DNA of 64,000 nucleotides from Eledone cirrhosa. Lineage: Eukaryota. The position numbers and the translations under genes are program-made. Positions 2,731-4,796 of the stretch are shown here, in pieces. Each line of letters starts with the position of its first letter. Position 1 is the stretch's first letter. The notes under the pieces were generated by a model. It ran no database searches. It had not been told where the DNA came from and saw only the letters and a list, made by a program, of their open reading frames with translations. The stretch spans positions 252,278,001-252,342,000 of the forward strand of contig OZ024740.1 of NCBI GenBank assembly GCA_964016885.1, read 5' to 3'.

Positions 2731-2760
<30 letters not shown>
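2731..2760. repeat. (TA)15 microsatellite separating the PLE remnant and the retrozyme-like element
   Basis: Perfect TA run. Confidence 0.98.
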
Positions 2761-2764
<4 letters not shown>

Positions 2765-2999
2765 CAAATAACGAAACGAAATTAAATTTCGTTTCGTTTG
2801 TAACTCACTTTTGTATGACTGACGCTTAAACAATTATGTTAAAAATGTACATCCACATATGTATACTGAAATACTAGTATGCATATGAATACACACACGT
2901 ATACATATGTAGATGTACCGAGTTTTTCACTGGTCACTTTACTGTGAGTGTCCAGCTATTCTGTATGTAAACACAGACAAACCGGTTTTTAGAGTCATA
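2758..2999. repeat. Direct repeat copy 1 (242 bp)
   Basis: Near-identical to 3222-3465; visible differences are TATGTT/TAAGTT, ACACAG/ACACACAG and TTTTTAG/TTTTGAG. Confidence 0.97.
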
Positions 3000-3050
3000 C
3001 TGGTTTTTGAGGAAACACCTTTCCTCTATTCTCCAGAAAGCCAGACAAGG

Positions 3051-3095
3051 AATATTGAACTAGTTTCGATGTTGTTACATCTCATCAGCAATATT
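3051..3095 (-). ncRNA. Type I hammerhead ribozyme (minimal metazoan type, palindromic short stem III)
   Basis: Minus strand reads AAUAUUG-CUGAUGA-GAUGU(AACA)ACAUC-GAAA-CUAG-UU^CAAUAUU: 7-bp stem I, invariant CUGAUGA and GAAA core, 5-bp stem II, palindromic ACUAGU stem III, and a GUU cleavage triplet. Predicted cut between 3058 and 3057. Confidence 0.92.
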
Positions 3096-3221
3096 TACCT
3101 ATCTTCCGGCCTTTCTAGAGAATCGTAAAAGCACATATCGTTATATGCTTTTTCTATGAAAATTAGTAGTGGGCAGACTAATTTGCATAGAGCGTGAGTA
3201 CGTACCGGTTCAACGGAGACG

Positions 3222-3465
3222 ATAAAAACAAATAACGAAACGAAATTAAATTTCGTTTCGTTTGTAACTCACTTTTGTATGACTGACGCTTAAACAATTA
3301 AGTTAAAAATGTACATCCACATATGTATACTGAAATACTAGTATGCATATGAATACACACACGTATACATATGTAGATGTACCGAGTTTTTCACTGGTCA
3401 CTTTACTGTGAGTGTCCAGCTATTCTGTATGTAAACACACAGACAAACCGGTTTTGAGAGTCATA
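3222..3465. repeat. Direct repeat copy 2 (244 bp)
   Basis: Near-identical to 2758-2999. Confidence 0.97.
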
Positions 3466-3517
3466 TATATATAATAGAGAAACGAAAATCAATTACTGAA
3501 TTTCAGAGACTTATCAA

Positions 3518-3753
3518 ACCAGAGTTTATCCCAGTTTCATGTGACATTAAGCAACTGAGGACATAAGGTTCTTCCCTGGAGAGGATGCTGTCTATTGCAA
3601 GATGAATGCTCAAGGGCTGTTGATATAAATTTCATTCCAGCTGAGTGGCTGAGGCAACGTGAAATGTAGTGCCTTGTTCAGGAAGACAACGCTTCATAGA
3701 TCGAAACCTGGCCTTATGATCATGTGACTAACACCATAAGACAACACACCTTC
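3518..3753 (-). mobile_element. Decayed tRNA-derived SINE, probably MetaSINE-type
   Basis: TATCCCAGTTTCATGTGACATTAAGCAACTGAGG...CCCTGGAGAGGATGCTGTCTATTGCAAG resembles the recalled Meta-domain consensus; GCAACGTGAAATGTAGTGCCTTGTTCAGGAAGACAACGC...GATCGAAACC gives a minus-strand B-box-like GGTTTCGATC. Confidence 0.55.
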
Positions 3754-4584: not shown

Positions 4585-4796
4585 ATGATTTCTGATTTAG
4601 GCACAAGACCACCAATTTTTAGGGGAGGGTAAAGTTGTTTAAATTGACCCCAGTACATTACTGGTGCTTTATTTTATCGAACCCGTCGGGATGAAAGGCA
4701 AAGCTAACATTGGTGGGATATGAACTCAAAACGTAAAGGGCCGTAAATCTATGTTGCAAAGCATGGTGTCTGACGCTCTAACGATACTGCCAATCC
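4585..4796 (-). mobile_element. tRNA-derived SINE, best-preserved copy of the family in this window
   Basis: Minus strand begins TGGCAGTATCGTTAGAGCGTCA (A-box-like), then GAGTTCATATCCC (B-box-like), then TTTGCCTTTCATCCCGACGGGTTCGATAAAATAAAGCACCAGT, resembling the Nin/Deu-type central domain. Two further copies occur in the window. Confidence 0.8.

Follow-up and report, generated by a model that had tools for sequence, protein, structure and literature searches.

The 708-bp insertion at 2758-3465 of the window, the whole 64,000-nucleotide stretch of DNA analysed here, is very probably one dispersed insertion of a metazoan non-LTR retrozyme present in many copies, and a Penelope-like reverse transcriptase (RT) priming at nicked TA repeats would have mobilised it. 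This class of element is already known, and the 464-base family is a fresh example of it. A repetition period of 464 across 2758-3465 gives a 1.53-mer embedded in (TA)n, which is made up of the following parts.

2758-3465, minus strand: whole insertion, 708 bp, 1.53 units of the putative 464-bp non-coding retrozyme
2758-3221, minus strand: complete monomer, 464 bp, 35.6% GC
3222-3465, minus strand: partial second unit, 5′-truncated, a pseudo-LTR-like direct repeat of 244 bp
2731-2760, no strand: (TA)15 microsatellite forming the left side of the target, adjoining the minus-strand 3′ end of the element
3463-3473, no strand: short (AT)n forming the right side of the target

The second copy is 98.4% identical to the first over 244 columns (blastn); compared with 2758-3001, 3222-3465 has two substituted bases and a 2-nt insertion, which makes three differing sites. 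The longest stop-free run in the circularised unit is 57-60 aa, with no ORF above 60 codons, and no further copy of the unit was found elsewhere within the 64-kb window. With regard to a target-site duplication, which in metazoan non-LTR retrozymes exceeds 4 bp when present, both flanks of the insertion are TA repeat; the truncated 5′ end shares a 3-nt microhomology with the (AT)n on the right. The right junction is spanned by a 1147-bp contig of a public sequencing run (X1, described below) at a depth of 5.08 and with 0 differences. Two smaller observations concern this side of the insertion. The truncated 5′ end (3457-3465) coincides with the base of a long-range 8-bp RNA helix, at which an RT might stall or jump, and which may be a coincidence. 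Another dispersed repeat begins ~40 bp to the right of the insertion, where 3503-3550 has a depth of ~400-460 and several loose ends in run X1.

The hammerhead ribozyme

The ribozyme lies in the unique middle of the insertion, outside the repeated part, and is the only hammerhead that the locus carries.

3028-3123, minus strand: type I hammerhead with extended helix I, from an Rfam HH9 match and pair probabilities
3059-3064, minus strand: minimal palindromic helix III, one pair and a self-complementary tetraloop
3057-3058, minus strand: predicted self-cleavage site, between 3058 and 3057, after the GUU triplet

The match to Rfam Hammerhead_HH9 (RF02275) at 3035-3106 scores 36.5 bits (E 2.3e-7), below the gathering score of 52, and its alignment covers all 77 model positions. 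At the gathering threshold, Rfam gave 0 matches in the whole 64-kb window; the many microRNA and sRNA matches were rejected because they score far under their own gathering scores and reflect generic hairpins. The hammerhead shares with HH9 the type I arrangement, the full core, the internal loop of helix I, and a six-base loop 2, and has a shorter helix III. The core is complete on the minus strand, with CUGAUGA at 3088-3082 and GAAA at 3067-3064. Helix II (3081-3068) comprises 4-5 bp, and helix I, interrupted by an internal loop and prolonged by a long extension, has 6-7 bp in its proximal part (3095-3089/3057-3051). Helix III is predicted to pair between two ribozymes (cofold, −7.2 kcal/mol), with an intramolecular pair probability of 0.0, and freeing the ribozyme core for the core-free conformation is predicted to cost 1.5 kcal/mol. 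As in axolotl HHR_Amex1 and newt satellite-2, helix III thus consists of one pair and a palindromic tetraloop, which implies dimeric cleavage (Amex1); palindromic helix III is known in dimer-cleaving amphibian ribozymes (PMC7229834). Unlike the axolotl and newt hammerheads, the window copy has a GUU triplet, a different host, and unrelated flanking sequence. One contig of run X8 carries a GUC triplet at 3058 instead of GUU, together with a 1-nt deletion in helix I (3047-3048).

The predicted cut site is 300 nt from the left end of the insertion and 408 nt from its right end. The locus does not hold two consecutive units with complete hammerheads, the arrangement by which a 2026 preprint defines an 'active' locus, and no contig spanning two ribozymes was present among the contigs listed, a result that bears on the locus and not on the family. 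The locus copy, with its single hammerhead, probably cannot release a monomer by itself.

A unique middle between direct repeats is also found in plant LTR retrozymes, which have a circular RNA intermediate of the kind predicted here by analogy. Plant LTR retrozymes, however, carry type III hammerheads in both LTRs, a PBS, a PPT, and 4-bp duplications, unlike the single type I hammerhead in the unique middle here, where the repeat is a partial tandem. A plant-type LTR retrozyme was therefore rejected, because the hammerhead is type I, single, and outside the repeated part.

Fold and strand asymmetry of the unit

Apart from the hammerhead, the predicted minus-strand fold of the unit contains the following stems and hairpins.

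2770-2783/2785-2798, minus strand: perfect hairpin, 14/14 Watson-Crick with a 1-nt spacer; as RNA, 13 bp and a 3-nt loop
2803-2808 with 3194-3199, minus strand: long-range helix, pair probability 0.66-1.0 on minus and 0.05 on plus
2813-2820/2993-3000, minus strand: long-range helix, 8/8 paired, closing a multibranch domain
2847-2866/2899-2918, minus strand: 20-bp stem, 19/20 Watson-Crick, with one G-U (C·A on the plus strand at 2854/2911)
3009-3026, minus strand: 7-bp hairpin, from the strand-neutral stem scan
3127-3137/3142-3152, minus strand: 11-bp hairpin, 10/11 Watson-Crick, with G-U at 3134/3145 (C·A on the plus strand)
3153-3191, minus strand: 15-bp hairpin with one mismatch

Every stem listed in the first-pass annotation of this DNA was recovered where it had been placed, and the four mismatches that it had read as C·A on the plus strand are indeed so, namely 2854/2911, 3134/3145, and 3034/3117 and 3043/3107 in the helix I extension. 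The A·G mismatch at 3159/3185 in the 3153-3191 stem, absent from that annotation, is unpaired on either strand. An inner 8-bp stem within 2847-2918 carries two G-U pairs on the minus strand. The helix 2813-2820/2993-3000 has a pair probability of 0.87-1.0 on minus versus 0.01 on plus, and the long-range helices are predicted to fold the unit into a compact, unit-length shape. A copy of the 2770-2798 hairpin is present at 3234-3262 in the partial second unit. On the minus RNA, this hairpin is followed by a U-rich tract that runs up to the main 3′ end. A promoter and terminator scan re-found the terminal hairpin with its U tract, with bacterial models that are irrelevant to an animal host.

The linear minimum free energy (MFE) of 2758-3221 is −161.1 kcal/mol on the minus strand (z −10.9) and −134.6 kcal/mol on the plus strand (z −6.4), each reached by 0 of 100 shuffles, and strand-neutral stems hold 190 bases, whereas 200 shuffles average 69 and reach at most 130. 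The circular MFE is −154.6 kcal/mol for minus versus −128.3 kcal/mol for plus, a difference of −26.3 kcal/mol. In shuffles, this difference is −4.4±5.1 kcal/mol with −19.3 as the most extreme value, and 0 of 60 reach −26.3. As far as folding energy against shuffles and strand asymmetry are concerned, the check proposed with the first-pass annotation came out in its favour. When G-U pairs are forbidden, the circular MFE becomes −123.0 kcal/mol for minus versus −123.4 kcal/mol for plus. Since the strand difference arises wholly from G-U pairs, the fold belongs to the RNA of the minus strand, which carries the hammerhead, and not to a DNA cruciform, as had been claimed. The full fold contains nine interior G-U pairs on minus versus one on plus in both phasings (p=0.021). 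A stricter strand-neutral scan gives three C·A versus 0 G·T (p=0.25), so that the few mismatches first pointed out are non-significant alone, and the significance rests on the full fold. The minus strand also bears the recurrent 3′ ends expected of a reverse-transcribed template.

It is highly improbable that the stems are DNA-level palindromes (cruciforms, MITE- or Helitron-like elements, or satellite) and the hammerhead a chance match. Several of the stems are perfect inverted repeats, and the plus strand folds well too, as its z-score above indicates; a DNA-level cause, however, predicts equal numbers of G·T and C·A mismatches, where one and nine are observed, and the hammerhead match (E 2.3e-7) falls on the same minus strand. 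This DNA-level reading is further opposed by the ends of the insertion, at which the sequence contains no terminal inverted repeats. The G-U bias appears to be a trace of repeated passage through minus-strand RNA, the likeliest cause being selection for a compact RNA, though a strand-biased A>G mutational process acting in the RNA phase could give the same pattern.

Other copies and their variants

The view of other copies comes from four of 24 public sequencing runs, mapped on 2990-3550. Run X1 is probably genomic, as suggested by its 1428 million contig letters, DNA not being on record as its source. It contains 1281 contigs on the unit, 636 of them at an identity of at least 99% and 442 at 95-99% (1078/1281 at 95% or more). 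The summed depth over the unit has a median of 4.9e5 versus 5.08 for the contig spanning the locus flank, giving a ratio of ~1e5, or ~3e3 with a worst-case overlap correction. Because such depth does not equal copy number, it is read here only as a sign that the family is young and has thousands of members or more. In X1 and X8, joints that go back by 466 nt show that units also stand head-to-tail elsewhere. Of the mapped records, a share of 0 in X1 and 0.01 in X8 continues into unlike sequence, so that no adjoining ORF body is seen. A loose end behind 3465 shows a tandem-junction variant in which the loop-closing A-U of the 3009-3026 hairpin becomes G-U on minus.

Among the nine of 71 loose-end entries viewed, pure (TA)n loose ends occur before 3222 in six records of X1 and one of X8, and before 3291 in five records of X1. 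The latter position marks one further feature.

2827 (seen as position 3291), minus strand: second recurrent 3′ end, 69 nt inside the first

On the RNA, both recurrent 3′ ends are preceded by much the same motif, UUGUUU(UU)A. The main 3′ end, beyond the 2770-2798 hairpin and the U-rich tract, is likely to be the start of reverse transcription. The 5′ ends may vary among copies, the view here covering nine of 71 loose-end entries and 17 of 1336 contig pieces.

These features bring the family close to Penelope-like elements (PLEs) such as Poseidon, Neptune, and Naiad, with which it shares the partial tandem, the 5′ truncation, and AT/TA-repeat targets. PLEs form partial tandems, and a (TA)n bias is described for Naiad and a microsatellite bias proposed for Neptune (PMC8557442); Naiads are known (TA)n specialists without canonical hammerheads. 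The two alternative 3′ ends recall the PLE 'tail', although they are 69 nt apart here versus 30-40 nt in PLEs. In contrast to PLEs, the element has no RT or GIY-YIG ORF, and its hammerhead is canonical and not minimal; an autonomous Penelope-like element was rejected on these two grounds. That the insertion is instead a remnant pseudo-LTR of such an element, and not a self-standing retrozyme, would agree with its partial tandem, TA target, and two 3′ ends, and with the reported relation of retrozymes to pLTRs (10.64898/2026.07.22.740005). We consider this improbable. An RT and GIY-YIG ORF between pseudo-LTRs was not found in the window unit, in agreement with the zero share of unlike sequence in X1, and in the window, X1, and X8 alike, successive units join head-to-tail without an intervening ORF. 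The minimal PLE ribozyme, according to PMC4209133, has a long helix II of 7-8 bp, a short helix I of 4-5 bp, and an extra base at 9/10.1; the corresponding values here are 4-5 bp, 6-7 bp plus the extension, and none.

Near-identical parts of the stretch occur in 20 of 24 runs, the 20 coming from 16 studies under 17 organism labels, and no RNA run is listed among them. In run X19, the occurrence is one 128-nt piece at a depth of 3.1; raw reads of run X23 gave 0 matches, which does not amount to a test. Run X8 has nine of the 11 variant sites that it covers in common with X1, its depth being roughly a thousandfold lower. The presence under many labels may be explained by horizontal transfer, by a close relationship among the organisms, or by contamination originating from a repeat of very high copy number, and no host range is claimed. 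Exact-pattern scans gave 0 loci in metagenome contigs and 0 in viral contigs; one of the metagenome-contig patterns would miss the majority helix II variant.

That variant belongs to a set of 13 with a frequency of at least 5% among copies, tabled without linkage. On the minus fold, five of them keep a pair, two are unpaired, and six break an MFE pair, one of the six being a degenerate bulge with a ddG of 0. The six breaks compare with a null expectation of 4.6 and are non-significant on either strand. The summed variant ddG is 12.1 kcal/mol versus 16.8 kcal/mol for a type-matched null built from 45 sampled positions per substitution type (p=0.25 for minus, p=0.26 for plus), and no double compensatory change is visible among the 13. 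Variant 3069 places an A·A in hammerhead helix II and accounts for 53% of the depth in X1 and 82% in X8. It is comparable to axolotl Amex2, in which a mismatch at the base of helix II is tolerated; in the axolotl, a retrozyme ribozyme that has U·U at this place still cleaves (PMC7229834). Variant 3320 (23%) disrupts one G-C pair in the 20-bp stem. Thus, of the initial claim that selection maintains a branched minus-strand RNA fold, the RNA-level part holds, and the part on selection is not borne out by the variants (p=0.25), which neither demonstrate nor rule out selection on the whole fold.

The variants also bear on RNA editing. The element would be the same, and ADAR would edit A to I in its double-stranded minus RNA with the RT fixing G, so that A-U becomes G-U and A·C becomes G-C with no selection needed; as an account of the G-U bias, we regard this as rather unlikely. 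Of the ten transitions, nine are A↔G as read on the RNA (p=0.022), or 11 of 13 (p=0.022) once three further changes, picked out by eye in loose ends, are counted, and all five pair-keeping variants are A-U↔G-U, with 0 G-C↔G-U (p=0.09). The 5′ neighbour is U or A at all nine tabled A↔G sites (p=0.02), similar to the 5′ A/U excess and 5′ G depletion of ADAR targets (PMC8586724); with two loose-end sites included, however, one 5′ C appears, and the lack of 5′ G among the 11 sites gives p=0.16. Editing has been suggested for the heterogeneous circles of mussel retrozymes (PMC7229834). The strand-bias and neighbour tests are nevertheless post hoc, with few sites and unpolarised changes, G being in the window copy at four of the nine sites, and selection that tolerates A-U>G-U predicts part of the A↔G excess. 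Furthermore, clustered hyper-edited copies are not visible in short contigs, and run X1 is not recorded as DNA, though the size of its contig set suggests it. ADAR favours A·C mismatches, a preference that would fit variants 3320 and 3399. The more specific form of this idea is unlikely to a greater degree, that is, that the minus-strand G-U wobbles are A-to-I edits in stems, written back by a TA-targeting Penelope-like RT starting at two fixed sites. If true, the thousands of young copies would be a genomic fossil record of RNA editing, and editing, the circular or linear nature of the template, and the mobilising enzyme could be read directly from DNA.

Proposed cycle and relation to known retrozymes

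For the retrozyme reading preferred here, a cycle of five steps may be proposed. Tandem arrays would be transcribed from the minus strand, and neighbouring hammerheads would pair via the palindromic helix III and cut, giving a ~465-nt monomer. A host RtcB-type ligase would circularise the monomer into a highly paired circle. An autonomous Penelope-like RT-endonuclease would nick a TA repeat and begin copying inside the RNA, in most cases immediately 3′ of the 2770-2798 hairpin. At the present locus, the RT would have copied 1.53 units through an intact cleavage junction and dropped off at 3465, and TA microhomology would have joined the end. Expression, cleavage, and circles of the unit are predictions. 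In other families, array transcripts, dimer cutting with a weak palindromic helix III, RtcB circles, and reverse transcription to more-than-unit cDNA are described (PMC7229834, PMC4209133, and PMC7761336). Further sources report two internal start sites and an AT-rich target preference for an anole PLE RT (PMC11167929), and tie animal retrozymes to PLE pseudo-LTRs (2026 preprint 10.64898/2026.07.22.740005). Counting against the retrozyme reading, only one of nine predicted retrozyme dimers cleaved in vitro in that preprint.

The template in this cycle could instead be a linear, uncleaved multimeric array transcript, the hammerhead then being dispensable for insertion, which is a possible but doubtful alternative to the circle. 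An RT that went round one circle once would be expected to leave two repeats of the same sequence, and the two repeats differ at their three sites; these differences, however, may postdate the insertion, and one of them is a dinucleotide slip. The cleavage site coincides with neither end of the insertion, being 300 and 408 nt away from them, and the variant that weakens helix II is the majority. For the anole PLE in vitro, insertion proceeds without hammerhead cleavage, with unprocessed RNA as the main substrate (PMC11167929). On the other hand, the long-range helices close a compact unit-length fold, and circles predominate in the retrozyme families of coral, mussel, and axolotl (PMC7229834). 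Altogether, the three repeat differences lean slightly to a multimer or to age.

The assignment to the metazoan non-LTR retrozymes follows from several shared features. Like the coral, mussel, and axolotl families (PMC7229834), the element has a short, low-GC (under 50%) tandem unit that is non-coding and carries a canonical type I hammerhead, here below the gathering score with all core bases present. It is head-to-tail and multi-copy at a high copy number, encodes no protein, and shows no LTR, PBS, or PPT; a stable self-paired circle with the ribozyme free to fold is a prediction only. Its length of 464 bp slightly exceeds the 150-450 bp of PMC7229834 and is within the range of 51-972 bp in 10.64898/2026.07.22.740005. 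Unlike those retrozymes, the locus is a dispersed 1.53-mer with one ribozyme, and the fixed 3′ ends in (TA)n are a feature undescribed for retrozymes in the accessible part of PMC7229834.

No cephalopod or octopus hammerhead family of this sort and no retrozyme editing footprint was found in a literature search that mostly left subscription papers outside; the supplement of PMC7229834 may list more invertebrate families. Integration of animal retrozymes is still a proposal (PMC7229834), and its mechanism remains to be elucidated according to 10.64898/2026.07.22.740005. A young, abundant family whose 3′ ends are defined and lie within TA repeats, and whose 1.x-mer insertions are clean, offers a test case, in which the priming site, the partner PLE, and the type of template could be worked out from one genome, and in which the strand-biased A↔G variation could reveal editing that feeds into DNA.

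Other repeats lie elsewhere in the window, and the abundance of microsatellites around the insertion suggests an animal. At 949-1274, (AC)n, (AT)n, and (TG)n tracts form a 150-bp imperfect inverted repeat of microsatellites. Two copies of a dispersed SINE-like repeat, 68% identical to each other, are located at 1578-1720 and 4639-4785, and may resemble octopus SINEs. Positions 4949-64000 are taken up by a 59-kb array whose degenerate units of 9 bp follow the consensus AACACCACC (79% matches). Its stop-free runs of up to 3768 codons were rejected as a gene, being compositional and alike in all three plus frames. The array is nearly devoid of G and T on the plus strand, with a GC skew of about −0.96. 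Periods of 18 and 9 describe it best, and no higher-order period emerges up to 3 kb.
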